From assembly GCA_043813075.1 (NCBI GenBank), contig JBDRLL010000038.1:1-25933 (forward strand): 25,933 nucleotides of DNA, given 5' to 3'. The notes under the pieces were generated by a model, which was not told where the DNA came from, searched no databases, and worked only from the letters and a program-made list of their open reading frames with translations. The DNA is from Candidatus Altiarchaeota archaeon (GTDB lineage Archaea; Altiarchaeota; Altiarchaeia; IMC4; SCGC-AAA252-I15). This document shows positions 1,629 through 25,095 of the stretch, piece by piece; position 1 is the first letter of the stretch, and each line of letters opens with the position of its first letter. Made by a program: the position numbers and the translations under genes.

Positions 1629-3245
1629 CTAGTTCTTATTTACTGCGCTATATGATTCTGTGAGTTTTCTTATTTCCCGGGTCTTGGAGTTTGCGGCCTC
1701 TATCAGGGATAGGAGTTCGACGAACATGCTGTCCTCATGTTTTTCTATAAGCCGTTTGAGATGAAAGTCATAGTATGTGTTTATCTGTTCCCTGAGTCTT
1801 TCATCGTTTTTTATCATAGCATGCGACTCCTTTTTGGTTATGGTGGGAAATGACTTCCTAAGCAGCCTGATGTTTTCGTTGAACATGTCATATATGTTTT
1901 CAAGGTCTTTTTTTGATTCGGGAGACAGCATCGTTCCAGTGTCCCACATGTTTTTAATCGTTGAACTTATATCCTCCCCCTTGTCGCCAAACTGTTCCAA
2001 TGCGTTGGAGATTCTGACCAGCATCACTATCTTTTTCGCCTCCCCTGGATCCAGCTCTCGCTTAGAGAACTCAAGGATGCTTTTCTCGATTTTATCATCC
2101 AAGAAGTCTGTGAGGGACTCCATCTTCAGGATCTTTTGATAGTTGCCGTCCTTCTGAGACTTAAAGAGTATTATCGACTCGTCATAGAGCTTGTCGTTTA
2201 CTTCAAGCGCATAATCCAACTCCTTCTCTATGGCATTGAATGATTTACTGTTGTCGTCAGGAAGCTTGTCTGGAAGGTGTTTAGTGTTAAAGAGTATCTC
2301 CTCCTCCTTTCCTGGAACCACTCTTTCAACGAGTTTCTTGAAAGGCTTAAGGGCGATAAGGAAGACTACTAAAAAGATTGTGCGGAATACTGTGAGGGCA
2401 TTTGCTATCTGTTGACCCGCTGAGCCACCCAGGCTTTCAATGAATCCTTGGAATGGGCCGAGGAAAGGCAGAATAAGGATGACTCCAAAGACGTTAAAAA
2501 GTAGGTGTGCGTATGCAGCCCTTTTTGCATGAAGGCTCATCTTAGAGGAAGCGATTAATGCCGTCGTTGTCGTTCCAATAGCTGCCCCTAAAAGGAGGGG
2601 TATGCCCTGGTTGAGGCTGATAAGACCTTCCTGTGAAAGTATGACTATTATGCCGGAAGTCACCGAACTTGACTGGACGAAGGTGGTGAACAGGAATCCC
2701 ACGATGATCGCTAAAGGGATGGTTGACATGCTTGTGAAAATTGATTTGACTGAGGGGTCGCTTTTAATAGGGGTTATGGAATCTGAAATTAGGTTGAGGC
2801 TGAAGAACACCAGTCCAAAGTAGAATATTGGTTTGCCAAGAAATTTGTATTTCCCGCCAGCCAAGCCAACAAGGAATCCAAGAACTATGAACAAGGGGGC
2901 GAACGCCGTAAGCTTGAATGCCACAAGCTGGGCTGTCACGGTCGTGCCAACATTCGCGCCGAAAATAATCCCAAGGCTCTGCATGAAGGAAATGGTGCCT
3001 GCATTCACCAATCCCACAACGATTACAGTGGTGGCCGTGCTTGACTGAATGATTGCTGTAACAATACCTCCAAGGAGCGCACCCTTCACCCTGTTCCTTG
3101 TCAGCCTACCCAACGCATCCCTGAATTTCTCTCCTGCAACCCTCTGAATCTCGATGCTAAAATGTTCAATACCATACAAAAACAACACTAAGCCAGGGAA
3201 TATGGCGAAAATCAACTCCCAATTCGTCAATAAATCAAAAACCAT
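1629..3245 (-). CDS. Na+/Pi cotransporter family protein (NptA/SLC34-like) with C-terminal PhoU-like domain
   Basis: Two QSSS-type repeats (IIQSSTAT, FVQSSSVT) and GANVGTT/GAAIGTT motifs in a multi-TM N-half. The helical C-half carries LEQFGD. Confidence 0.93.
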   Translation of the reverse strand: MVFDLLTNWELIFAIFPGLVLFLYGIEHFSIEIQRVAGEKFRDALGRLTRNRVKGALLGGIVTAIIQSSTATTVIVVGLVNAGTISFMQSLGIIFGANVGTTVTAQLVAFKLTAFAPLFIVLGFLVGLAGGKYKFLGKPIFYFGLVFFSLNLISDSITPIKSDPSVKSIFTSMSTIPLAIIVGFLFTTFVQSSSVTSGIIVILSQEGLISLNQGIPLLLGAAIGTTTTALIASSKMSLHAKRAAYAHLLFNVFGVILILPFLGPFQGFIESLGGSAGQQIANALTVFRTIFLVVFLIALKPFKKLVERVVPGKEEEILFNTKHLPDKLPDDNSKSFNAIEKELDYALEVNDKLYDESIILFKSQKDGNYQKILKMESLTDFLDDKIEKSILEFSKRELDPGEAKKIVMLVRISNALEQFGDKGEDISSTIKNMWDTGTMLSPESKKDLENIYDMFNENIRLLRKSFPTITKKESHAMIKNDERLREQINTYYDFHLKRLIEKHEDSMFVELLSLIEAANSKTREIRKLTESYSAVNKN

Positions 3246-7013: not shown

Positions 7014-7481
7014 TTATTTCATCTCCACTACCAAGTTCCCTTTCATCCCCATCTGCCTGTGCTGGCCTACACTGCAGTAGTATTCGAATGTTCCGGTCTT
7101 GTCTGCCGTAAATTCGATTGATGCTGAGCCTGGTGCTTGGAGTCTCTCTGTTCTCGCGTTGAATTCGTCCACAACCCAGTCGTGGAGTCCTTGCGTGCTC
7201 GTGAACTCTATGCGAACGCGGTCCCCCCGCTTAACCCTGATTTCAGGGTTTTCAACCCCGTCCATCAGGAACTTGAAGTTAACCCCCGACAAGGAGAAGG
7301 CCTTAGCATCACCGTCATTCTGCATCATGGTCTCATCATCTTTCTGCGTCATACCAGACTCGTCCTTCCCTGTCATAGCATCCTCTTTACTCGCGTCTTC
7401 GGGAGAATAACCCCTTAGAAGAACCAATCCAACAACAGCCAGCAGAACGATAGCTAGGATACCGTAAGTCTTGCCTTTCAT
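7014..7481 (-). CDS. Membrane-anchored cupredoxin (type-1 copper) protein
   Basis: N-terminal TM helix, with copper ligands in GLHDW and YYCSVGQHRQMGM (C-x4-H-x4-M). Confidence 0.92.
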   Translation of the reverse strand: MKGKTYGILAIVLLAVVGLVLLRGYSPEDASKEDAMTGKDESGMTQKDDETMMQNDGDAKAFSLSGVNFKFLMDGVENPEIRVKRGDRVRIEFTSTQGLHDWVVDEFNARTERLQAPGSASIEFTADKTGTFEYYCSVGQHRQMGMKGNLVVEMK

Positions 7482-7728: not shown

Positions 7729-9093
7729 CTAAATGTAGCCTATCTCATGGAGTTCCTCCAAAATCTTAGTTTTATCCCCAGTATCCTTCATGATGTCTGA
7801 CATAAAATGGCTCATTTCTTCTTCTAGAAGCTTCTTTGAATCGGATTCCTCCGATATAAGGTTTTCTTTTTCCCACCTGTCGGATGTTATGTTATACAAT
7901 CCTACTATTGCTTTTCCGTTATGGTGCATTTTGTAGTCGCCTATCCTAACTATTTTCTCCTTCTTCCACTCGGCAAATACGCTCCTGTTTTCCCACGTAT
8001 CCAGGATATTTTCGCCGTCAAACACTCCCTGTTCATAGTCGATGCCTAATAGCTTCAGGATAGTGGGTGCTATGTCTAGGGTTGAGACAACCTTGCTGGA
8101 GTGTCCAATATCCCCCAGTTTCCCACCGCCAACACTGAACATCAGGGGAACCCATATCTCGTATTCATCAAGGTTTTGGCAGTGATTCCACTTGTTTCCC
8201 TCACCAAGGTGTTCGCCGTGGTCGGACGTTAGTACCACAATCGTGTTATCAGTCAAATCATGGGATTCTAGATACTCCAGGAATCTGCCTATCTGAAAGT
8301 CTGTGTATCTCACCTCCCCATCATAGAGGGCATTATAATAGTCGACTTCCTCGCTGGAGAAAATATCCCCCATCCTCCCCCAGTAATCGTCGCTTAATGC
8401 ATCATACTCTGCTTTTTCCAGTCTTTCTCTCGTAAAACCCTCCACTCGACTAAGACGTCCATCCACGTAATCCCTAAATCCTTCTGGAGGGTAATACGGG
8501 TCATGGGGGTCATAATAATGCAGCCACATGAAGAAACTATCCTCCCTGTTATCCTCCAGCCATTTAATCGCATTTTGTGTTATGACATCAGCGGTTCTAT
8601 TGGTGAAATTATACAAATCAGTTTCTTCCATGCCCTGTATGTCAAAAAGCATGAATCCCCTACCATACTCGTGTTTCACCTTATCTTCACCCATGAAATG
8701 ATGTTGGCTGACCACGGCAACAGTATTGTAACCCCCCTCCTTCATGAACTGGGCGAGTCCCACACCCTCATCATAACCGAATCTGCCGCTGAGGAATCTG
8801 GCCACAGACGGCATCGTGCAGGGGGCAGACGAAACAGCGTTTTCAAAAACCGTCTTGTCCCTAAAAAAAGAATCGATGTTAGGTGTGGTATTCCTGTAAT
8901 AGCCATAAATGCTCATATGGTCCGGCCTCAACGTTTCGATTGAAATCAAAACAACATTCTGTCTCTTGTCGGTGCGGGCGGAAGGCATCACATGACGCCA
9001 GTTAGCGAGATAATCCAAAATATAATGGGCGACCACAAGCGACATGAGAATCAGGAGGATAATACAGGTAATGCTAATGGCATTACTGCTCAT
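7729..9093 (-). CDS. Membrane-anchored sulfatase-like hydrolase/transferase (alkaline phosphatase superfamily)
   Basis: NVVLISIETLRPDH, APCTMPSV, FFMWLHYYDPHDPY, YDGEVRYTD, TSDHGE and C-terminal LHEIGYI. Confidence 0.9.
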   Translation of the reverse strand: MSSNAISITCIILLILMSLVVAHYILDYLANWRHVMPSARTDKRQNVVLISIETLRPDHMSIYGYYRNTTPNIDSFFRDKTVFENAVSSAPCTMPSVARFLSGRFGYDEGVGLAQFMKEGGYNTVAVVSQHHFMGEDKVKHEYGRGFMLFDIQGMEETDLYNFTNRTADVITQNAIKWLEDNREDSFFMWLHYYDPHDPYYPPEGFRDYVDGRLSRVEGFTRERLEKAEYDALSDDYWGRMGDIFSSEEVDYYNALYDGEVRYTDFQIGRFLEYLESHDLTDNTIVVLTSDHGEHLGEGNKWNHCQNLDEYEIWVPLMFSVGGGKLGDIGHSSKVVSTLDIAPTILKLLGIDYEQGVFDGENILDTWENRSVFAEWKKEKIVRIGDYKMHHNGKAIVGLYNITSDRWEKENLISEESDSKKLLEEEMSHFMSDIMKDTGDKTKILEELHEIGYI

Positions 9094-10738: not shown

Positions 10739-11758
10739 CTATTCAATGCATTCCCCGTCTTTACAGCCTCTAGAGCATCTCTCGTAGGGGTTCGCTTCTT
10801 GGGTGATGGTCTCGCCCAGTAGGATGGTCTTGTATATGCACCTCGCTTCAGTGGTCCCCGGCTTCTGGCACAGGGGCGTTCCCTGCTGTATGTACACGTC
10901 TCCCTTATAACATATCCTGTTCTCAGTCTGGTTGCCGCAGTCCCTGTTCGTCAGACACGCTATCACATGTATCGTTGATGCTGTTGATGATGTGGAGCTT
11001 GTTGACGCGGTGGACGTGGTTGTGGGCTCGTAATATCCGTAATCGCATGTGCCATCACCGTCCGAGTCCAAGCAGCATTCCCCGCCGACTAATGTCATGG
11101 GTGGCGTGCAAAGTTCAATCTGGGCGAGGGTGGTCGAAGTCTGGGTTGGCGTGACATCCACATCTGCACGTCCTATCCACACGTATGCTCCTATGGCGAT
11201 CGTCAGAAACATCAGGGTTGCAAGTAGCAGTGCCAACAGTTTTCTGTCTGCGTTGGCGAACACCCCCAACACCAATGTAAAAACGGAGCGCAGGTGCCTG
11301 TAGAGTCCTAGGAATATTATCATGCTGGACACTAGGAAGATGGTTCTCACCAGCAGTATGCGGTTTGCGTTAACTATCGGGTATATCATAAATTCAAATC
11401 CTGAGAATATGCTTGAAAGGTGGTTGGAGTATATGAATCCTGCGAATATGAGTATGAAGACTGCCGACAGTATGGTGAATAATTTAAGCAAAAAACTCTT
11501 GTTCTTGGTCTTCAATAGTATTAACAGTATCTCCAGCTCGACGATGAATGTCAGGAGGAAGCCTAGAGTCACCAGCCAGTTGTTTTCCATCCCGCTCATG
11601 TAGTTTGTGATTCCGGCGAAAACCCCGAATATGGTCAGTATCTGCCAGTTGGATGTGATGAATGCCTCGAGGGAGACTGCTTCCGGCTCCCTCTTACGTG
11701 GCATGCCGTTTACCCCCTGATTCCCCCAACCTCCTGAAGAATCGTTCCTGTAATCCAT
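10739..11758 (-). CDS. Multi-pass membrane protein with extracellular Thr/Ser-rich linker and Cys-rich domain
   Basis: About 5 TM helices, a CCLDSDGDGTCD Ca-binding-like motif, a T/S tract and a disulfide-rich C-terminus. A TATA-like TTTTTAAG lies about 25 nt upstream. Confidence 0.75.
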   Translation of the reverse strand: MDYRNDSSGGWGNQGVNGMPRKREPEAVSLEAFITSNWQILTIFGVFAGITNYMSGMENNWLVTLGFLLTFIVELEILLILLKTKNKSFLLKLFTILSAVFILIFAGFIYSNHLSSIFSGFEFMIYPIVNANRILLVRTIFLVSSMIIFLGLYRHLRSVFTLVLGVFANADRKLLALLLATLMFLTIAIGAYVWIGRADVDVTPTQTSTTLAQIELCTPPMTLVGGECCLDSDGDGTCDYGYYEPTTTSTASTSSTSSTASTIHVIACLTNRDCGNQTENRICYKGDVYIQQGTPLCQKPGTTEARCIYKTILLGETITQEANPYERCSRGCKDGECIE

Positions 11759-11792: not shown

Positions 11793-13061
11793 TCAGGAAA
11801 ACGCCTTTTCTGACGGTTCTGGCGTTAGGAATCCAGTCTGGTTTTCATGCAGCCGGACCATACGATAAATCATCCTCCTCTTCCCGGATTCTCTATCATT
11901 CACTATGGTGTTGTAGTATTCCCATACTGTCTCGCCATCCTCTGTTATCTCAAATACGCGGCCAGTACGGGATTCTGTTATCAACAAGTTGTTGTTCGGC
12001 AGGATCTCGACTCCGCCCCTGTCTATTGAGAAGAAGTCCTCCGGATTCTCTGCCTTATACTCCCATACCACCTTTTTTGTCAGTGGGTCTATCTCCTTTA
12101 TGCTTGAGTATCCGCGTTCAAACCCGTTGTCGAATATGAGGATGTTCCCTTCAGGGGTTATCGTCGGCTTGTGTGGGTATTCCAGTCCTTCAGGACCGTA
12201 AGTCCACACTATCTCCTCCTTATTCAGGTCGATGACGCCTATGATGTTGATGTGGCGTATGCAGAATAATACGTCACCCTTCTTGAATATCATGGACCCG
12301 TTCTTATAAACGTCTTTCTCTATTACCTCTATGGTGTTTGTGTGGTAGGTATCCCATCCATCGTATCCAGGCAATCTGATATATGTCTTCTGGTTTTTCG
12401 TTAGCTGGAGGAGTATCGGGTCCTTTAGTATCTGGTCTGTGAGGGAGACTTTCTTTATTATCTCGCCCTTCATGTTGATGACCACGAAATTATTGTCCAG
12501 TACCAGCAGTTCGTCTGATATCTCAGACCTGTTCTCCAACTCATAATCCACTAGGTAGATCAGGCCCTTATCGTCCAATCCAATGTCATGATGGTATCCC
12601 CCGGTGATTAATACTTCCGGCTCCTGGTTCTTGCGTATCACAGTCACTCCCATGTCTTCGGACAATACTAGTGCGGTCTCATCATCGTATGGCTCCAGTA
12701 GCTTGCATTCTGACAGTGGGAGTTTAATGCTCTCGGTTATGGTGCCCTCCATGTCCATGAACATCAGAATGCTGTCAACCCTGTTACAGTAGGCGTTAAG
12801 CCCATCATACGCCTTACCCTTCTCATATATGGTGACGTTGTATTTACTGGCGTTTTTATCTTTCTCGGGTATGTCGTATTCTGTTAGATAACCCAATTCC
12901 ACTAGCCTGCTGACTGCGGAATCAGCTATCACTTCATCCACATCTGGGATATCCCCCACAGGGTACAGTAAATAGGTTAATGCAGAAAGAGCGAAACTTA
13001 AAGCTACTATCGTCAGGGCTATGAGCGTTATGACACTGATAGTGTATCTCCTTGATTTCAT
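11793..13061 (-). CDS. Arylsulfotransferase (ASST) family beta-propeller protein, membrane-anchored
   Basis: YHHDI, DTYHTNTIE, YPHKP, ILIFDNG, LPNNNLLITES..GRVFEIT..GE.VWEY and IYR. Confidence 0.88.
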   Translation of the reverse strand: MKSRRYTISVITLIALTIVALSFALSALTYLLYPVGDIPDVDEVIADSAVSRLVELGYLTEYDIPEKDKNASKYNVTIYEKGKAYDGLNAYCNRVDSILMFMDMEGTITESIKLPLSECKLLEPYDDETALVLSEDMGVTVIRKNQEPEVLITGGYHHDIGLDDKGLIYLVDYELENRSEISDELLVLDNNFVVINMKGEIIKKVSLTDQILKDPILLQLTKNQKTYIRLPGYDGWDTYHTNTIEVIEKDVYKNGSMIFKKGDVLFCIRHINIIGVIDLNKEEIVWTYGPEGLEYPHKPTITPEGNILIFDNGFERGYSSIKEIDPLTKKVVWEYKAENPEDFFSIDRGGVEILPNNNLLITESRTGRVFEITEDGETVWEYYNTIVNDRESGKRRMIYRMVRLHENQTGFLTPEPSEKAFS

Positions 13062-13071
13062 CCAGCTATTG

Positions 13072-13404
13072 CTAACTATGGCCTACTGTCGCTTTCGCGT
13101 CCTGCTCTAAGTATGCTGCAGTGTAAACCATTGCCATCCAGACTCCAACGCATGCGAGTAGCATTGGAATGCCTATTGACATGATTTCCGAGAGCATAAC
13201 TGCCGCATCCACTGGGTTTGCCATCGCCGTAAGGAAAGGCGGGTAGGGAACTATTTCGCCGCTAGCCAGGTGCTCTATCATCAAGCCCGCTGAACCGCCC
13301 CACGCGAGCGTGTTGAACCATCCTATATGGTATTTCTCCGGTATCCTCTTCCGGAATATCGTCGTTATCACTGCCGTTGCCATTGGTGCTGAAAAACAAG
13401 CCAT
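13072..13404 (-). CDS. Small membrane protein, putative metal-transport subunit B
   Basis: 3 hydrophobic segments, N-terminal MACF and WGGSAGLMIEH...GE...PFL. It lies 2 nt downstream of its paralog. Confidence 0.75.
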   Translation of the reverse strand: MACFSAPMATAVITTIFRKRIPEKYHIGWFNTLAWGGSAGLMIEHLASGEIVPYPPFLTAMANPVDAAVMLSEIMSIGIPMLLACVGVWMAMVYTAAYLEQDAKATVGHS

Positions 13405-13406
13405 CT

Positions 13407-13703
13407 TTACTCTACCTCCTGTTGAACCTCATTTTTTAATTTCGATATGACTAATTGAATCTCCCATATGATAAATACCGGTATCAGCATCGCCAGCCCC
13501 AACACAGTCCCGCTTTCAATCAGTCCGCCAGCCTCCATCTCGATGAACGGGCCGCCCTCGTATCCTAACACGTGGTCGATGAAGACCATTATTGAAAGAC
13601 CCCATAGCATGAGGGCTAGATCCCCTAACTTATACTTTTTCGGGGTGTAAGCCCAAACAGCGGTTACCAGTATCGCCGCCACAGTTGATGTAATAAGCCA
13701 CAT
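13407..13703 (-). CDS. Small membrane protein, putative metal-transport subunit A
   Basis: 3 hydrophobic segments and WGLSIMVFIDH...YE..PFI. It is divergent from nikR. Confidence 0.75.
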   Translation of the reverse strand: MWLITSTVAAILVTAVWAYTPKKYKLGDLALMLWGLSIMVFIDHVLGYEGGPFIEMEAGGLIESGTVLGLAMLIPVFIIWEIQLVISKLKNEVQQEVE

Positions 13704-13730
13704 AACACTACCATAACACTTTTTTTATTA

Positions 13731-13764
13731 ATGTGTCACATACTATATAAGCGTGGTGACACAT
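13731..13764. promoter_or_regulatory. Putative NikR operator
   Basis: Perfect inverted repeat ATGTGTCAC-N16-GTGACACAT enclosing TATATAA within the 62-bp divergent intergenic region. Wide half-site spacing is typical of NikR (E. coli GTATGA-N16-TCATAC). Confidence 0.78.
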
Positions 13765-13765
13765 C

Positions 13766-14176
13766 ATGGTCGACAGGGTGACACGATTCGGCGTATCACT
13801 GCCCAGCGAACTTATGGGCAGGTTCGACAGCGCCATCTCGAAACTAGGATACTCCAACCGCAGCAAGGCCATCGGGGATGCAGTCACCGATTTCATAAGC
13901 CAGAAAAGAGTGCCTGACTGCGGGAGGATAATCGGAACCGTATCCTACATCTACGACCACCATATCTCCGACGTCAACAGGAAGCTGGTTGAACTACAAC
14001 ACGGCTTCGAGAAAAACATCAAATCCACGATGCACAGCCACATAACCCACCACAACTGCGTTGAAGTGCTGATAGTCGAAGGGAACGCTGAAGAGATACA
14101 AAAACTCTACGGCGGCCTGAGCGCGACAAGAGGCGTTCAGAACTGCAAGCTCGCGATACTCGACAAGACCCTGTGA
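13766..14176 (+). CDS. nikR: Nickel-responsive regulator NikR
   Basis: RHH N-terminus (RFGVSLP..L...FD......GYSNRSKAI.D) and ACT domain with Ni ligands (LQH, MHSH, NCVE). Confidence 0.96.
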   Translation: MVDRVTRFGVSLPSELMGRFDSAISKLGYSNRSKAIGDAVTDFISQKRVPDCGRIIGTVSYIYDHHISDVNRKLVELQHGFEKNIKSTMHSHITHHNCVEVLIVEGNAEEIQKLYGGLSATRGVQNCKLAILDKTL

Positions 14177-14180
14177 AATA

Positions 14181-15347
14181 TTACGTGAATTGGCTTAGCC
14201 TGAGTTGCCTGCTCCTCAGTTCCTCGCGCAGCACACTGCTGTCCCTTATGAACCTGTCAACACCAAGTCTCAACCTTGGTTCAACGCTGTCCAATGCCTC
14301 CCCCAGGCTCGAGTGTTCCGACGGCTTAGTGTTCATGGCCGCCCGGACGTTCTCACGCACGTTGAAGACTCCTAATGGGACATAACCTTCATAGGCCTCT
14401 CTCAGGACTATCGCTCCAGCCTGGATGCCTTCTCTCGCGAGGCCTTCTAGGACTCCGAACTTGCAGCTGTAGTAGCAGCCTCCTACTGTTGAGTAGCCTT
14501 TCTTTCCGTTGTTCCACTCGTGGTCTGTGAACAATACTTCCTCCCTGCCGAGCACATGGAGGAACGCCTCCATCCACTCGTACTGCCATGGCGTCGGAGT
14601 TAGTATGATGGCGTAGTAGTTGTTTAGGCTCTCGAACTCGTGCACCCTGTAATAGTCTATGGACTCATTGTTCCTCACCTCCTGACTCAGGCTGTCTGCC
14701 AGGGTGGTGTCGCATGCTGTGATGGACCAGCGGGTGGGGACTAGCCGCCTCCTCCTGCCCGCCCCAAAGCTCCCTACCGAGAATGCCTTCTGTATCCTGG
14801 AGAAGGGAGTGCTCTTATCATATAACTCCAGCACAGCGTCCCTGGCCTTCAGGTCCGTGTCGTAGTGCGCCTTCTCCATGTCCTTATCCCACCTGCAGTT
14901 GTCTGTCTCGTAGCTCGTGTATTCCCCGCTCGGCCCGTGGGGGGTGTGGTGGTCGTTGAATGACATGCCAGACGGTTTTTTAACGAACTCCGCGCACCCT
15001 GGTATGGGGTCTCTCGACATCACCGTCTCCTGCAGTTTTGAGACTATCCTGTTGTCCACGTCAGTCACATTCACCTCATGCTTCCCCCTGACCATGCTCA
15101 ACCTGTATCCTATGATGTCTTCTATCGTGTTCTGGGAGGGTATCCAGTCTTCGGGAGAGTCCATCCGGCTTGTTTCCGTTAGCTCTGGGACGAGCAGGGG
15201 TCCTGCGAGCACTTTAGGATAGTTCCAGCTGCCTATGAATGCTGACGGCGGCGTGGAGCCTTCTATCCTCTTGCCCAAGTCTACTGACCTGAACCTCAGC
15301 TGAGAAGTAAGCTGCTTCAGGTAATTGTTCTTGTCCCTGATGCCCAT
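14181..15347 (-). CDS. Nre family archaeal DNA repair protein with C-terminal PIP box
   Basis: GSTPPSAFIG...YPKV..GPL, RRLVPTRWSITA.D, GGCYY, PLGVFNVRENVR and PIP-like QLRLSQF. Start reassigned to ATG 15347 (MGIRDK). Confidence 0.9.
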   Translation of the reverse strand: MGIRDKNNYLKQLTSQLRFRSVDLGKRIEGSTPPSAFIGSWNYPKVLAGPLLVPELTETSRMDSPEDWIPSQNTIEDIIGYRLSMVRGKHEVNVTDVDNRIVSKLQETVMSRDPIPGCAEFVKKPSGMSFNDHHTPHGPSGEYTSYETDNCRWDKDMEKAHYDTDLKARDAVLELYDKSTPFSRIQKAFSVGSFGAGRRRRLVPTRWSITACDTTLADSLSQEVRNNESIDYYRVHEFESLNNYYAIILTPTPWQYEWMEAFLHVLGREEVLFTDHEWNNGKKGYSTVGGCYYSCKFGVLEGLAREGIQAGAIVLREAYEGYVPLGVFNVRENVRAAMNTKPSEHSSLGEALDSVEPRLRLGVDRFIRDSSVLREELRSRQLRLSQFT

Positions 15348-15439
15348 AGAGTGAGAATTGGTTTTACCTTGGTTTAATAAAAATCCTAGTCCACTGGAAA
15401 AATAACATTCAATCCCCTCTGGTGGCGGAGTCGCATGGC

Positions 15440-15940
15440 CTACCATCCCTTGTATAGTTCCGCGGGATTGTGGCCTCCCGGAAGGCACCAGTTTGGGGCC
15501 AGGTTGAGGTTCCAGCTGCCGCAACCCGGGTTGCCGCTGGCCACAGTATCCCCGCATTCCACTGGCACGCAGATGTTCTGCGAGTTCACCACGAAGCCTG
15601 GACTGCACGTGCTGTTCTGCCGGCAGGCCTCCTGGAAGTATCCGCCGCACACGGTGGTCGTGGTGGTCGAAGTGGTTGAGGTCGTGGTCGAATTGGTGGT
15701 TGTCGTCGACGTCGTCGACGTCGTGCTAGTGGTCGTTGTCGTCGTGGTGCTGGTTGTTGATGTCGTTGAAGTGCTGGTCGTGGTGGTCGCCCGCTCATAG
15801 AACACGTATGCCGTCATCGTAGCCGCCACTGCGATGCCCGCAAGAAATACGATTACCGCTGTGATGAAGAACGCGATGTTCCTCGCCCCCGCATTATTCG
15901 GGGTTTCCCCTCCCACTCCTGCCTCATCCAGCCTGCTCAT
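15440..15940 (-). CDS. Membrane-anchored surface protein with Thr-rich stalk and small Cys-rich domain
   Basis: A single TM helix, a run of about 45 T/S residues, then a domain with 7 Cys. Confidence 0.8.
   Translation of the reverse strand: MSRLDEAGVGGETPNNAGARNIAFFITAVIVFLAGIAVAATMTAYVFYERATTTTSTSTTSTTSTTTTTTTSTTSTTSTTTTNSTTTSTTSTTTTTVCGGYFQEACRQNSTCSPGFVVNSQNICVPVECGDTVASGNPGCGSWNLNLAPNWCLPGGHNPAELYKGW
15652..15790 (-). repeat. Low-complexity ACN-codon tract encoding the Thr/Ser stalk
   Basis: Imperfect GTG/GTC/GTT trinucleotide repeats on the + strand. Confidence 0.8.
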
Positions 15941-16408: not shown

Positions 16409-17200
16409 TCAATAGGCGTTTATCAGGGCGACGCCGGAGACCATTATTATCGCGGCTAGTATGATCCTTATCTTCTTGATGGGTATCCTGACGTGCATGT
16501 GGCTGCCAAAGTAGACTCCCGGTAGGGATCCTGCCAGTATGGAGGCGACTATGGGCATGTCCACGTTCCCATAGGCCAGGTGCGTCACGCCGGCAGCCCC
16601 CACAAGGAATGTGGCGGTCAGTATGTCAGTGCCAACCACCCTCCCGTCCTGTATGGGGTGGAGTAATAGCAGGAACACAAGTATGAAGACTCCGCTGCCC
16701 ACTGAAGTCACTCCCACCAGCAATCCAACGAGAAACCCTACCACTATCGTATACACGTGCAGTCTGGGCGTGAACCTGAACAAACATTGGGTGCCCTCAA
16801 TAGTGGTCTTCCTCTGGAACCTCGCCTGTATGAGGATGAACAATGAAATGCAGATTAGTGCAAGCCCCAGTGATGTTCTGATGAACTGGTCTACCGCATA
16901 CTGGTGGTCTCCCAGATACTTCAGCGTCCAGACACCCAACACGGAACCCGGAACCCCGCCTATTATCAAGTGGCCTGCCACATTCAAGTCAACCGTCTTG
17001 TTCCTGTAGTGCACGATGGCCCCAACTATCTTTGTGGCGCCAGCGTACACGAGGTCGGTGCCGACGGCAGTCAACGGCTTTACTCCCATCAAGAGGATGA
17101 GTATGGGAGTCATCATGGCGCCGCCACCCATCCCAGTCAACCCCACTAACACTCCAACAACCAGTCCTGCCAGTGAAAACCTCGGGTCAAACATACTCAT
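16409..17200 (-). CDS. TauE/SafE (sulfite exporter) family permease
   Basis: GLTGMGGGAMMTP, AVGTDL and repeat GVTSVGSG...VVGTDI. The start is probably 17200 or 17194. Confidence 0.92.
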   Translation of the reverse strand: MSMFDPRFSLAGLVVGVLVGLTGMGGGAMMTPILILLMGVKPLTAVGTDLVYAGATKIVGAIVHYRNKTVDLNVAGHLIIGGVPGSVLGVWTLKYLGDHQYAVDQFIRTSLGLALICISLFILIQARFQRKTTIEGTQCLFRFTPRLHVYTIVVGFLVGLLVGVTSVGSGVFILVFLLLLHPIQDGRVVGTDILTATFLVGAAGVTHLAYGNVDMPIVASILAGSLPGVYFGSHMHVRIPIKKIRIILAAIIMVSGVALINAY

Positions 17201-17229
17201 ATTATAGGCCAGAATGGGTATATTAATCC

Positions 17230-18186
17230 ATGACAATAATGGAGGGAGGTGGCCAGAATAATGGTGTTAGAAGTTCTCCTACTCCCCCCGGTTCTCAGGT
17301 AAAACCCCATTCTGAAACTATCTCACGTTCTCTGCGCAAGGCTCTTGACGGGGGTGGTGACGTCACTGTATTGCGGTTCAACATGCAGACTCAGATACCT
17401 GACCCTCAGGTCAGGGATTTCGCGTCTCATCTTGTTAGGGTTAATGATGGTGATATTGCGGTTGGATTGTATGGGAGTAGGGTTCACCGGCTTGTGTTGG
17501 GCGTCGAATCACCTCCCGGCACTGACCTGGATCTGGCTTACGCTACTTGCGGCTTTAACGGCAATGACATAAAGCCGTTCAACGCGTTGAAGTTGAAGGC
17601 AATGGCTCTACGCGATAGGCTGGGCGGTTACACGCCAGCCGGCTTCTCTGACGGAGAGTTCATATGTCCATGGGTGTCCTACGTGAATTCACGGGGCTCA
17701 TTCTTTAAGCCCGGAGTCCGCTCTGAAGACGATTTTTCGAGGTTTGACTTGGGGTATACTGTGAATAACGTGATACTGCTTACCGACGGCAGGGAGGGTC
17801 GGATTATAGATGGTCTCGGGGGTGTAAGAGACTTGTTTGAAGGCAGGCTTCGATTCCCCGATTCCATAATGGCAGCCCTAGGTTCAAAGGATTCGAGATG
17901 GAAGACCTCAAGGGCTTTGCTTGGGTTGAAATACAAGCATACGCGTGGCATGGATTTTGACCCAGACACCCTTCAGGCGTTATCACAGCAAATGAGCAGG
18001 GTAACGTTCACAAGCAACGAGCTTACAGACGCCAGTAACCTCAGGATGCTCGGCGACATACTCGAGTCAGGAGACCCTCAGCAGGTTGCCGAAGAATTGA
18101 AGGCCTTACGGCTGGATGAATTCAGGAAACTCGCGTTAAGATACGACGACAACCGCCCCCTATACAAGCGGATAAGACATAAATAA
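17230..18186 (+). CDS. Divergent class II nucleotidyltransferase (CCA-adding/poly(A) polymerase-like)
   Basis: LYGSRVHRLVLG...TDLDL (motif A), EDDFSRFDLGYTVN (motif B), IIDGLGGVRDLFEGRLR (motif C) and GMDFDPDTLQAL. Confidence 0.72.
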   Translation: MTIMEGGGQNNGVRSSPTPPGSQVKPHSETISRSLRKALDGGGDVTVLRFNMQTQIPDPQVRDFASHLVRVNDGDIAVGLYGSRVHRLVLGVESPPGTDLDLAYATCGFNGNDIKPFNALKLKAMALRDRLGGYTPAGFSDGEFICPWVSYVNSRGSFFKPGVRSEDDFSRFDLGYTVNNVILLTDGREGRIIDGLGGVRDLFEGRLRFPDSIMAALGSKDSRWKTSRALLGLKYKHTRGMDFDPDTLQALSQQMSRVTFTSNELTDASNLRMLGDILESGDPQQVAEELKALRLDEFRKLALRYDDNRPLYKRIRHK

Positions 18187-18926: not shown

Positions 18927-19631
18927 ATGGCCTCCCGGCAGACGGTGCTTGAGCACTTGGACGAACTGAGGACCAGGGTCCTGCGTGTTGTCGCCGTCAT
19001 AGTGTTAACGTCGCTCCTCGCCTACCCCCTGACGGACAGCGTCCTAGCCTTCATGCTGGATGGCATACTCGGCGGCTACAGTAGGAACGTCGTCGTTACA
19101 ACCCCATTGGAGGCGGTTTTGGTCAGATTCAAGCTATCCCTAATAATTAGCGCATTCATCTCAGTCCCCATAGGATTCTACGAGGCGCTGAGATTTATCG
19201 GTCCAGGCCTATATCCCCGCGAAAGAAAGTGGATTCCCCTAATCCTCTCCTCGTCGCTCCTACTCTTCACTGCAGGCGTCGCCTTCGCCTACATAGTACT
19301 GTTGCCGTTCATGGTGTCGTTCCTGCTGGCTTTCGCGTCGCCGTTCGCCAGGCCGATGCTGGTCTTGGACTCCATGGTCTCGTTCATAGTCCTGACTTCA
19401 GCGGCCATGGGGGTCGCATTCCAGTGGCCCCTGCTTGTGGCTGTCTTGTCGAGGCTAGGGGTTGTGTCGTCCGCATGGCTTTCTGGGCGGAGGAGGCATG
19501 CGATAGTCGCGTGCTTTATTCTTGGCGCGGTTTTCACTGACCCCAGCTTCATCACGCAGGTGTTGGTGGCGGTTCCTCTCGTAGTGCTCTATGAGGTGGG
19601 CATACTAGTCGCCAGGTTGTGCGAGAAATAG
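18927..19631 (+). CDS. tatC: Twin-arginine translocase subunit TatC
   Basis: HLDELRTR, FIGPGLYPRE, FQWP, RRHAIV and TDPS...Q...A.PL..LYE. Confidence 0.96.
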   Translation: MASRQTVLEHLDELRTRVLRVVAVIVLTSLLAYPLTDSVLAFMLDGILGGYSRNVVVTTPLEAVLVRFKLSLIISAFISVPIGFYEALRFIGPGLYPRERKWIPLILSSSLLLFTAGVAFAYIVLLPFMVSFLLAFASPFARPMLVLDSMVSFIVLTSAAMGVAFQWPLLVAVLSRLGVVSSAWLSGRRRHAIVACFILGAVFTDPSFITQVLVAVPLVVLYEVGILVARLCEK

Positions 19632-22609: not shown

Positions 22610-24130
22610 ATGGACAGGGATGCTGGCGATTCTAAACTGGAGGAGGTGGAGAAGTCTCTCAGGGAGTCGGAGGAACTCCATCGGATAACATTGAGCAACA
22701 TCTCTGACGCGGTCTTTCTCACTGATGATGGCGGTTCATTCACATTCATCTGCCCCAACGTCCACGTTATATTCGGATACTCTTATCGTGAGGTCGACGA
22801 ACTCGGCAACATATCAAAACTAATCGGGAATAAGGTATTCAAAAAAAATGAACTAAAGAAGAGGGGTGAGATACCGAACATAGAGTGCGAGATAGTTGAC
22901 AAGTCCGGAAGGCACCACATACTCCTCGTTAACGTCAAGTCTGTGTCAATAAAGGGCGGGACACTGCTGTATACCTGCAGGGACATAACGGAGAGGAAGA
23001 AGGCTGAGGAGGAGCTGAAGAAGGCGAAGGAAGAGCTTGAGGTCAGGGTTGAGGAACGTACGAGGGAGTTGAGGGAGTCTGAGGCAAAATACCGGACTCT
23101 CGTAGAGCAGGTTCCGGCTGTGACATACACCGCCTCACTGGACGAGGTAGGCTCTAGAATCTACATCAGCCCGCAGATAGAGTCAATACTCGGATTCACC
23201 ATTGACGACTGGACCAGGGAGCCTAAATTATGGCTAAAGCAAATGCATCCTGACGACAAGGAGCGTGTGCTATCCATAATCTCAGGATCCCACGAGACCG
23301 GTGAGCCATTCATACTAGAATACCGGCTCATGGATGTTTACGGAAACACCCGATGGTTCCAGGACAAGGCGGTGGTCGTCCACGACACCGAAGGAATGCC
23401 CCTACTCCTCCAGGGAGTCATGATAGACGTGACCGAGGAGAAGAAGCTTGACACAATCAAATCAAACTTCATCAGCAACGTATCCCATGAACTGAAGAGC
23501 CCGCTAGGCCTGATATCCGGCTATGTTGACGTGCTTGCAGAGAGGATAAGCGATGAAGGCCAAGCCGAGCTTATAAGCGTTGTTAAGTCCAACGTCCAGA
23601 GGCTGAACAACCTGGTTAACAGCATACTGGATTTATCTCGACTGGAGTCTGGTAAGATAACATTCAACAAGAAAAGCCATGATGCTAATGAAACCCTAAA
23701 CAGCATAGTCTCGGAATTCAACCAGGTGCTCTCTAAGAAAGAACTAAGCATTTCCCTAGATTTAGCGCCCAAATCAATGGTTTTCGGGGATTCTCATCGT
23801 TTACGCCAGGTCTTCTCAAACCTCCTTGAGAATGCAGTGAAGTTCTCGGAGAAGGGGGGTAGCATAAGATTAAGCTCGCGGATAACTGATGATGGCGTTA
23901 GGTTCTCGATTTCTGATGAGGGATGCGGGATACCATCGAATGAGGTGGAGGACATATTCAAAAAATTCCACCGGGCAGAGAAGAGCATAATGGACGGGAC
24001 TTCAGGCACAGGGATAGGTCTCGCTATCGCAAAGGACATTGTCCTGGCGCATGGGGGTAGGATATACGTTGACTCTGTCCCAGGGAAGGGTTCCACCTTC
24101 CATGTGTTATTGCCTAAAGGAGATGCATGA
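22610..24130 (+). CDS. Cytoplasmic PAS-PAS sensor histidine kinase
   Basis: Two PAS/PAC domains, H-box SHELKSPL, N-box NLLENAVKF, G1 DEGCGI and G2 GTGIGL. No TM segment. Confidence 0.95.
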   Translation: MDRDAGDSKLEEVEKSLRESEELHRITLSNISDAVFLTDDGGSFTFICPNVHVIFGYSYREVDELGNISKLIGNKVFKKNELKKRGEIPNIECEIVDKSGRHHILLVNVKSVSIKGGTLLYTCRDITERKKAEEELKKAKEELEVRVEERTRELRESEAKYRTLVEQVPAVTYTASLDEVGSRIYISPQIESILGFTIDDWTREPKLWLKQMHPDDKERVLSIISGSHETGEPFILEYRLMDVYGNTRWFQDKAVVVHDTEGMPLLLQGVMIDVTEEKKLDTIKSNFISNVSHELKSPLGLISGYVDVLAERISDEGQAELISVVKSNVQRLNNLVNSILDLSRLESGKITFNKKSHDANETLNSIVSEFNQVLSKKELSISLDLAPKSMVFGDSHRLRQVFSNLLENAVKFSEKGGSIRLSSRITDDGVRFSISDEGCGIPSNEVEDIFKKFHRAEKSIMDGTSGTGIGLAIAKDIVLAHGGRIYVDSVPGKGSTFHVLLPKGDA

Positions 24131-24132
24131 GT

Positions 24133-25095
24133 CTAGGCATTGTTCACGTCAAACTCATCTACGCTCTGGACACGTGTGCTAACCTTCAACGGCCTCCTGC
24201 ATTCATCACAGAAGATTGGCACAACACTCTTCACGTCTTTCTCCAGCTGCGATATGATATACTCTACTTTCTCTTCCCTGCATATCACTATGAATGTGTT
24301 TTCATTCAGGTGGCCTAGGAATCCGTCGTCGTTGGTTTTTATTATTTCATGGGTTATCGTCTGTGCGACAAGCTTGACGCAGTCCCTGTATCTCTTCTCC
24401 TCAACTTTATCCTTCAAGTCATCGAGGTTGTCCACTCTTACTCTTATCACCCTGAAGAGTTCCCCTGCCTTCCTCAACTCCTCCTCGATCAGCCTCTTCC
24501 CAGGCAGGTTGGTTATCCAGTTCCTGTCCCTGTTGTTGTCTAGTAGCGATTCCACGCGCGACCTGATGTCGTCTATGCTGAACGGCTTTGACACATAGTC
24601 ATCTGCACCATGTTTCAGGCCGTTGAGCCTGTCCTCCAGCTCTCCTTTCGCGGTGAGCATTAGGACTGGTATGTCGCGCGTGAGGGCGTTCTCCTTTATC
24701 ATCTCACACACCCTGAAGCCGTCTATGTCCGGCAGCATCAAGTCGAGTATTATAAGGTCCGGCATGTCCTTGACTTTCTCAAGGCCTTTCTCCCCGTCCT
24801 CCGCTTCTATGAACTCGTAGTCGTTGTCTGTCAGCACTATTTTTATCAGTCTTATGTAATCTGGGTCGTCTTCTATGACAAGTATCCTCTTGCTCCCGGA
24901 GCCTTCGATGCTCCATATCTTGGAGGCACCGATCATCGAATACTTGACTTTCCCATCGACCCTGAGGAGTTCGAGATACTTACCGAGGGTGGCCCTCCCA
25001 TGCCCGGTCTTGAGGGAAAGCTGTCTAGTCGACATTCCACCTGGATTATCCTCTAAGACCTCAAGTATCTCCTGGCTGGTGTCCATGATAATCAA
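24133..25095 (-). CDS. HTH - response regulator receiver - degenerate GGDEF protein
   Basis: N-terminal wHTH, REC domain (IEDD, LDLMLP, LTAK, KPF) and a C-terminal GGDEF-like fold (WITNLPG, VDNL, FLGHLNENTF). Confidence 0.88.
   Translation of the reverse strand: MIIMDTSQEILEVLEDNPGGMSTRQLSLKTGHGRATLGKYLELLRVDGKVKYSMIGASKIWSIEGSGSKRILVIEDDPDYIRLIKIVLTDNDYEFIEAEDGEKGLEKVKDMPDLIILDLMLPDIDGFRVCEMIKENALTRDIPVLMLTAKGELEDRLNGLKHGADDYVSKPFSIDDIRSRVESLLDNNRDRNWITNLPGKRLIEEELRKAGELFRVIRVRVDNLDDLKDKVEEKRYRDCVKLVAQTITHEIIKTNDDGFLGHLNENTFIVICREEKVEYIISQLEKDVKSVVPIFCDECRRPLKVSTRVQSVDEFDVNNA

Follow-up and report, generated by a model that had tools for sequence, protein, structure and literature searches.

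A probable NikR-controlled nickel permease built from two paralogous three-helix membrane proteins in Altiarchaeota and other uncultured lineages

As far as the importer lists of two surveys reach (PMC2667541, 2009; PMC11247825, 2024), nickel uptake is assigned only to NikABCDE-type transporters, Nik/CbiMNQO, NiCoT, UreH, HupE/UreJ and TonB-dependent receptors, and the archaea in the list of the former have only NikABCDE-type, Nik/CbiMNQO and NiCoT systems. HupE/UreJ and NiCoT are placed under the control of NikR in some species in the regulatory part of the same survey (PMC2667541). The published NikR consensus for delta-proteobacteria, in the section of the regulon study that gives it, is GTGTTAC-N13/14-GTAACAC, together with a reversed variant (PMC545781). 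Here we describe a DNA window of 25,933 nucleotides (contig JBDRLL010000038.1, positions 1 to 25,933, assembly GCA_043813075.1) from a Candidatus Altiarchaeota archaeon, in which two small membrane-protein genes, referred to as A and B, are transcribed divergently from a nikR gene. The A-B locus resembles the NikR-repressed nik(MN)QO/cbiMNQO importers of Ni/Co (Rodionov et al. 2004, PMC545781), which are of the energy-coupling factor (ECF) type, in its regulator, its operator type, its slot divergent from nikR, its box-TATA-box layout and its small membrane subunits. We propose that A and B probably form a permease for Ni2+ uptake that has two subunits, is repressed by NikR and represents a family not yet described.

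A and B are neighboring open reading frames (ORFs) with 2 nt between the stop codon of A and the ATG of B, and the intergenic region between A and nikR spans 62 bp (13704-13765). The nikR product matched Pfam NikR_C over profile positions 1-76 of 77 (E = 1.1e-27) and scored 131.3 bits against the cut-off of 105 for the NCBIfam NikR equivalog NF003381, with an RHH_1 match of 18.1 bits slightly below the cut-off of 20.5. By its domain content it is a true NikR, with a predicted ribbon-helix-helix and a nickel-binding ACT-like C-terminal domain (NikR_C). The intergenic region holds the perfect inverted repeat ATGTGTCAC-N16-GTGACACAT (candidate operator 1 in Table 1), which has the core GTGTCAC/GTGACAC and, read by eye, TATATAA at 13744-13750 in its spacer. 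This repeat is the sole match in the window even when up to three mismatches are allowed, and none of 100 shuffles matched; the looser pattern GTGTYAC-N13-17-GTRACAC occurs a single time in the 1.8-Mb assembly, at this site, and a control pattern does not occur at all. The half-sites of operator 1 fit the consensus as printed in the published study (PMC545781), and its spacer is longer.

The original prediction, which had been made from the DNA letters, spoke of two adjacent genes for membrane proteins of about 100 amino acids (aa), of an intact nikR divergent across 62 bp, of a perfect palindrome over the TATA element and of the lack of an adjacent ATPase gene. The ORFs, the nikR profile matches, the uniqueness of the palindrome in window and genome, and a Pfam scan of the neighbors bear this out. 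A second, overlapping NikR site is possible: candidate operator 2 shares its middle half-site with operator 1, and 'reversed' sites of the form GTGACAC-N13-GTGTTAC/T are also present in the two closest loci (L001 and L002). Directly before the ATG of A, the minus strand of 13704-13719 contains the direct repeat GTGTTAT-GGTA-GTGTT, which could supply further NikR-type half-sites where the A-B transcript begins.

Relatives of A were present in 96 stretches of one-genome-per-species contigs, and 80 of the 96 loci were analyzed. A and B are adjacent in all 80 loci; A comes first in 66 of them and B in 14. The hosts, all of them metagenome-assembled genomes (MAGs), include the archaeal Altiarchaeota, Thermoplasmatota (with Methanomassiliicoccales), Iainarchaeota, Hadarchaeota and Freyarchaeota and the bacterial Omnitrophota, Planctomycetota, WOR-3 and Patescibacteria, besides others. 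A collection clustered at 90% contains 523 proteins of the A family and 62 of the B family, all of which are unnamed or 'hypothetical', and a HMMER search over 1.84 billion representatives with the B profile gave 511 matches at E<=1e-3.

nikR lies within the flank examined in 44 of the 80 loci. In 25 of these it is divergent at no more than 190 bp, and in one it lies 2.1 kb upstream on the opposite strand; it heads the operon in 12 and follows the pair on its own strand in six. We then scanned the 80 loci (536 kb) for the half-sites GTRTYAC/GTRAYAC, which are the published ones made degenerate at two positions, with a spacer of 12-17 and at most one mismatch. Forty-six of the 55 unique sites fell inside regulatory windows totaling 33.3 kb, and 39 loci had a box in such a window; 100 shuffles of these windows gave 1.0 such loci on average and 4 at most. 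Six of the box-positive loci have no nikR in the flank examined. The conservation of a NikR-type inverted repeat among orthologous loci is the criterion for a NikR regulon, and by it the A-B promoter is a predicted regulon member; both the nikR neighborhood and the operator, whose conservation had been left to be checked, recur across phyla.

Genes related to nickel also recur beside the pair, with LarC in six loci, an aminoimidazole ribonucleotide (AIR)-carboxylase/LarB-like gene in three and HypF in four. In diderm bacteria an outer-membrane channel gene stands directly upstream of A-B, of the OprB type in 12 loci and of the MetA barrel type in four (listed in Table 1), the typical operon order being nikR, channel, A, B. 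These barrels are candidate outer-membrane channels dedicated to nickel. The barrel genes upstream of A-B were seen in Omnitrophota, Planctomycetota and related bacteria, mostly behind nikR.

In the genome, the A-B pair takes the position of NikM/N. Two other members of the phylum, one from the same family as the window genome (G044) and one from the same order (G015), have nikR divergent from nikM, a gene for a small PDGLE-type protein, and cbiQ. In G044, the NikR encoded beside nikM is 54% identical to the window NikR, and the nikR-nikM intergenic region contains GTGTTAC-N17-GTAACAC around TATAAAA, a box-TATA-box layout identical to that of the window. Of 61 genomes from the phylum, the B profile matched 22 (18 of them strongly) and CbiM was above its cut-off in 14, and B and CbiM occurred together in none, with one genome (G028) having only a sub-cut-off CbiM match; the one-sided Fisher p of 0.0007 for this exclusion is uncorrected for relatedness and only indicative, because related genomes are not independent. 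NikR was found in 47 of these 61 genomes and NiCoT (NicO) in none. The window genome, which is 89% complete, has two [NiFe]-hydrogenase large-subunit genes, and it gave no match to CbiM, NicO/NiCoT, HupE_UreJ, HupE_UreJ_2 or NikA-type SBP_bac_5.

We searched Pfam and NCBIfam with A and B and found no family at E up to 1, save two chance hits for A, and individual Pfam searches with their relatives (70 of B, 62 of A) gave no consistent family. A sequence search of the PDB with both profiles returned nothing for B and one chance match for A (E=1.6), and the matching clusters in the protein atlas are all labeled 'hypothetical protein'. A and B are nevertheless related to each other: BLASTP aligned them at 30% identity across 44 aa (E=8e-5), and hhalign of the two profiles gave a probability of 97.7% (E=2.2e-12) over 93 columns, by which A and B are whole-length paralogues. 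A mixed MAFFT alignment made for a model of the fused proteins described below put the A family on the B half and was dropped, an outcome consistent with paralogy.

An AlphaFold2 model of B built from 70 sequences (predicted local distance difference test, pLDDT, 90.4; predicted template-modeling score 0.75) has helices at 5-16, 27-48 and 64-107 and a short hairpin-like turn at E50-F57, and A is read from its sequence and its alignment to B as having three transmembrane (TM) helices as well. With Foldseek, neither the B model nor the fusion model (pLDDT 72.1) had a PDB match at E<=0.001, and their best VIA-align scores against 48,161 chains (Z 6.7 and 8.8, respectively) fell on generic helical segments only, such as fragments of G-protein-coupled receptors, coiled coils and designed helical hairpins. 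A prediction of the A+B complex from their own alignments (62 and 70 rows) scored 0.14 against a mark of 0.32; it was run without controls and weighs neither way on binding.

Thus the description of A and B as paralogous three-TM proteins, given in the original prediction, is supported by the profile alignment and the model. So are its details: the shared motif quoted as WGLSIMVFIDHVLGYE in A and WGGSAGLMIEHLASGE in B is present, the acidic-His pair at the end of a TM helix is conserved (D43-H44 in A, E44-H45 in B), and the protein that begins MAC is B (M-A-C-F), in which the invariant Cys3 is an even stronger signal than had been noted. The pair had also been taken for an uncharacterized family unlike the known nickel uptake families, and this stands in Pfam and NCBIfam, where no known non-transport family was matched either.

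The conserved residues are of the kind expected for metal ligands. Across 62 A sequences W2, D43-H44, G47, Y48-E49, E55, G69, M72, P75 and W80 are conserved, with D43 and H44 invariant, while the residues invariant in 70 B sequences are C3, H45, E50, P56, E73, G78 and W89. The aligned TM3 positions G69/M72/W80 in A and G78/M81/W89 in B are conserved in both. The hallmarks of the B family are the N-terminal M-x-C-F, E-H-x3-G-E and P-F-L-T, and those of the A family are M-W-L and D-H-x2-G-Y-E-G-G. The window proteins, which form the first rows of the family alignments, keep all invariant residues (hmmsearch E 2.1e-53 for B and 5.8e-52 for A). Among 211 B-family sequences, 161 start with MAC and 167 with M[AGS]C; 13 further ones carry the start motif internally, behind an apparently over-long gene call, and the remaining 31 are mostly truncated calls or have V, C or T at position 2. 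Every residue seen at position 2 is small, and a small residue there is of the class that permits removal of the initiator Met by methionine aminopeptidase. Lipoprotein-type processing of the MAC start was considered and ruled out on the sequence, in which the Cys is the third residue and is not preceded by a signal peptide.

Charge counts over the families, taken per sequence, give 2.6 Lys+Arg for A and 4.6 for B in loop 1 and about 3 in the C-tail, against 3.4-3.6 Asp+Glu and about 0.6 Lys+Arg in loop 2. From this concentration of Lys and Arg in loop 1 and the C-tail and the acidity of loop 2, we infer by the positive-inside rule that A and B are both N-out and C-in. The conserved polar residues would therefore face outward, and the predicted outer-face set comprises Cys3, Glu44-His45, Glu50 and Glu73 of B and Asp43-His44, Glu49 and Glu55 of A.

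The same topology bears on nine natural B-A fusions of 186-233 aa (P0166, P0193, P0210, P0211, P0214, P0235, P0236, P0256 and P0327). These came from the search of representatives; in a set of 5.8 billion proteins no longer (fused) B relative was found at E<=0.001. The fusions have five TM helices, with TM1 of A absent and TM3 of B in its place, which is what the inferred topology requires and argues that A and B work as one unit. Together with the adjacency of the genes, the fusions support the view that A and B bind each other. Cys3, the Glu-His pair and the Glu of B remain invariant in the fusions.

We read A-B as a nickel importer because the pairing is obligate, NikR and its operator are linked to the pair, the pair sits in the nikMNQO slot and has a distribution complementary to that system, other importers are missing, outer-membrane channels accompany it in diderms, nickel genes neighbor it, and its conserved residues are of ligand type. 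A and B would then be the two subunits of a small heteromeric nickel permease of the cytoplasmic membrane with 3+3 TM helices. This agrees with the original prediction, which took the pair for a minimal heterodimeric Ni2+ (or Co2+) permease. When nickel is plentiful, Ni-NikR would bind the inverted repeats, which overlie the TATA box and the beginning of the A-B transcript, and shut off the operon, and it would probably also repress nikR itself; when nickel is scarce, the A-B pair would be produced. On the outer face, the conserved acidic and His residues where TM2 ends (D43-H44 and E49/E55 of A, E44-H45 and E50 of B), probably joined by the free N-terminus and Cys3 of B, would capture Ni2+, which would then be handed inward along the conserved Met, Gly and Trp of TM3. 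Since no ATPase is dedicated to A-B, the energy source of uptake would be the membrane potential or intracellular metal binding.

Compared with the described importers, the pair stands apart in sequence and in build. CbiM (PF01891, 7 TM, M-H start) did not match A, B or 132 relatives; B starts with MAC and A with MWL, and each has three TM helices. A-B has no sequence match to CbiM, CbiN/PDGLE, CbiQ or CbiO and has no T component or ATPase, and many carriers are without CbiQ; neither CbiQ nor CbiO recurs beside A-B in the 80 loci. NikM/N has 7+2 TM helices and A-B 3+3, and the N-terminus reads M-H-I-P-D-G in the NikM of the two sister genomes and M-A-C-F in B. The structure of NikM2 reportedly has the N-terminal residue of NikM as a metal ligand, a role that the invariant N-terminal x-Cys could play in B.

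HupE/UreJ and NiCoT (HoxN/NixA) resemble the proposed A-B permease in having no ATPase, and they carry Asp/His motifs in TM helices (HX4DH in NiCoT, HX5DH in HupE), but they are single polypeptides of 6 TM helices (HupE/UreJ, with a cleaved signal peptide) or 8 (NiCoT) whereas A-B is two proteins of three. NicO (PF03824) and HupE/UreJ (PF04955, PF13795) gave no match for A, B or their relatives in Pfam searches, a level at which a very remote kinship with HupE could escape notice. The E. coli nikR-nikABCDE locus is alike in having a Ni-responsive ribbon-helix-helix repressor beside uptake genes and an inverted repeat with half-sites of 6-7 bp about 1.5 helical turns apart, but NikABCDE is a binding-protein-dependent ATP-binding cassette (ABC) system of five proteins and A-B consists of two proteins of 100 aa; no NikABCDE genes adjoin A-B, and no SBP_bac_5 was found in the window genome. 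That 3+3 TM helices could be large enough for a transporter is suggested, as an analogy only, by SemiSWEET, a parallel dimer of 3-TM units that transports sugar; there is no fold match, and no homology is claimed. A literature search returned no title or abstract opening that describes such a pair, the regulon tables of Rodionov et al. 2006 and the supplements of PMC2667541 being outside its scope. By these membership tests A-B lies outside NikM/CbiM, NiCoT, HupE/UreJ and NikABCDE. In function it would be comparable to the nikR-nikMNQO and nikR-nikABCDE modules, and it is probably a NikR-controlled nickel importer from an unrelated and undescribed protein family.

Several observations weigh against this proposal. 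No nikR lies in the flank examined in 36 of the 80 loci, and 41 have no box at the threshold used. The spacer is N16 in the window and N16 or N17 in three relatives (L001, L002 and L085), against N13/14 in the published consensus. The more distant fusions keep the Asp of the A D-H pair but often lose the His, and neither fold search gave a transporter-like match. The window genome is incomplete and has one EcfT/CbiQ homologue on another contig. Outside the phylum the exclusion does not hold: of three carrier genomes, the two Methanomassiliicoccales MAGs have genes of the CbiM family too, although these may be for cobalt transporters, which Pfam does not tell apart; and in a sample of an Omnitrophota order A/B occurred in two of 61 genomes and CbiM in 13, too few for a conclusion. 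In the Omnitrophota sample nikR stands beside nikM in three of ten CbiM loci. Finally, NikR also activates genes in some bacteria (Helicobacter), and NikR control alone therefore does not give the direction of transport.

The main rival explanation is that A-B is a split capture unit, like the S component of an ECF-type ABC importer, that would be ATP-driven through an EcfT/EcfA module shared with other transporters and inactive alone. Group II ECF transporters do share such a module encoded elsewhere in the genome, and the position of A-B in the place of NikM/N, the 3+3 TM helices (near the 6 of S components), the CbiQ/EcfT homologue on another contig of the window genome, and the reported use of the N-terminus as a ligand in NikM would all suit it. 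However, CbiQ/EcfT is unmatched in 9 of the 22 carriers of the phylum, including genomes that are 97, 93, 93, 93 and 91% complete. No T component or ABC ATPase recurs beside A-B, the ABC_tran genes in six of the 80 loci being in PstB/ABC-3 context, and neither CbiM nor any S-component family is matched in sequence. We consider a capture unit of this kind unlikely.

It is similarly improbable, in our judgment, that A-B handles nickel without importing it, be it as an exporter, as a membrane buffer or chaperone, or as a sensor that signals to NikR. The small size of the proteins and the lack of an energy-coupling gene are compatible with such a role, the conserved Cys, His and Glu are as fitting for a site that binds or relays the metal as they are for a pore, and the dual action of NikR as repressor and activator in some species leaves room for it. 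But known nickel exporters are induced by nickel through RcnR, NmtR or CnrH, and A-B replaces an importer by position, is coupled in diderms to an outer-membrane channel under nikR, and stands in a window genome that is otherwise without an importer among the five families searched.

There is also little to favor a true substrate other than free nickel, that is, another cation (Co2+, Zn2+, Fe2+ or Cu+) or a small nickel complex, with control by NikR being secondary. Nickel transporter families are often ambiguous between Ni and Co, as the specificity section of the survey has it (PMC2667541), a site containing Cys and Met could fit soft metals, and ZIP, FeoB and ABC-3 genes lie near some A-B loci. 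The regulator that recurs, however, is NikR and not a B12 riboswitch, Zur or Fur, and the recurrent maturation neighbors LarC and HypF are nickel-specific. The weakest alternative, that A-B is a membrane pair with no part in metal handling that merely shares a divergent promoter with nikR, could appeal to the loci without a nearby nikR and to the lack of any family or fold that ties A or B to an activity, but it is very improbable given the NikR boxes upstream of A-B in six loci that have no nikR in the flank and the linkage to nikR across archaea and bacteria in three gene arrangements.

The nickel permease proposed here is flanked in the window by an arylsulfotransferase-like beta-propeller gene and a gene for an Nre-family protein, and in the Pfam scan no ATPase gene adjoins it. 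As only 10 nt separate the arylsulfotransferase-like gene from the stop codon of B, it may be co-transcribed with A-B under NikR control; as a third component of the system it was ruled out, with homologues in none of the 80 related loci. The Nre-family ORF (Pfam Nre_N 7.6e-80, Nre_C 1.1e-31) has a GTG start and an Arg/Gly/Pro-rich N-terminal extension of about 110 aa, and its real start is probably farther downstream. Two further genes (surface proteins 1 and 2 in Table 1) encode predicted membrane or surface proteins with long Thr/Ser-rich low-complexity stretches and Cys-rich C-terminal parts, for which no Pfam family matched; a homologue of surface protein 1 is also found downstream of A-B in loci L002 and L008. 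None of the ordinary context genes, from the Na/Pi cotransporter to the PAS kinase, is linked to A-B in the other loci.

Table 1. Positions of the A-B pair, its candidate operators and neighboring genes in the window, and of the related loci cited in the text.
Feature	Position	Strand	Description
Gene A	13407-13703	-	ORF, 98 aa, first gene of the pair, predicted 3-TM
Gene B	13072-13404	-	ORF, 110 aa, predicted 3-TM, paralogue downstream of A
nikR	13766-14176	+	136 aa, transcribed divergently from A-B
Candidate NikR operator 1	13731-13764		Perfect inverted repeat ATGTGTCAC-N16-GTGACACAT, 0 mismatches
Candidate NikR operator 2	13713-13739	-	GTGACAC-N13-GTGTTAT, shares the middle half-site with operator 1; read from the sequence
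Arylsulfotransferase-like beta-propeller	11793-13061	-	422 aa, N-terminal TM helix; Pfam Arylsulfotran_2 3.7e-22
Nre-family protein	14181-15650	-	
Surface protein 1	10739-11758	-	Predicted membrane/surface protein
Surface protein 2	15440-15940	-	Predicted membrane/surface protein
Na/Pi cotransporter with PhoU domain	1629-3245		Context gene
Cupredoxin	7014-7481		Context gene
Sulfatase	7729-9093		Context gene
TauE/SafE-type permease	16409-17236		Context gene
TatC	18927-19631		Context gene
PAS histidine kinase and response regulator	22610-25095		Context genes
Locus L085	G044:C3:1-5000		nikR divergent from nikM, PDGLE-type gene, cbiQ; locus ends at contig start
Locus L086	G015:C26:21500-27000		nikR divergent from nikM, PDGLE-type gene, cbiQ, then cbiO
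OprB-type channel loci			L034, L049, L055, L057, L059, L063, L065, L067, L068, L076, L077, L079
MetA-type barrel loci			L053, L054, L064, L072

A bolder form of the permease proposal can be put forward only tentatively. A/B may be a self-sufficient, ATP-independent Ni2+ uniporter made of two 3-TM paralogues with an N-terminal 'nickel hook' as its selectivity site. Several uncultured archaeal phyla and ultra-small bacteria would take up nickel mainly through this family, and in diderms a dedicated NikR-controlled outer-membrane channel would feed it. The hook would form once Met1 is removed: residue 2 would contribute its free amine and the invariant Cys both its amide nitrogen and its thiolate, while His45 and Glu50 of B and Asp43/His44 of A would complete the site. 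Such N-terminal hook chemistry is known from Ni-superoxide dismutase and, with His instead of Cys, from NikM. If this is true, no nickel importer smaller than the A/B uniporter would be known.

Many uncultured archaea and candidate-phyla bacteria have nickel enzymes, and the window genome, with its [NiFe]-hydrogenases and none of the five known importer families searched, is a case in point. If A-B is a nickel permease as we propose, a sixth and very small importer family would fill that gap. It would improve the metabolic reconstruction of Altiarchaeota, Thermoplasmatota, Omnitrophota and Patescibacteria, would add new members of the NikR regulon for annotation, and would provide a model system of 200 residues for the selection of Ni2+ by a membrane protein.

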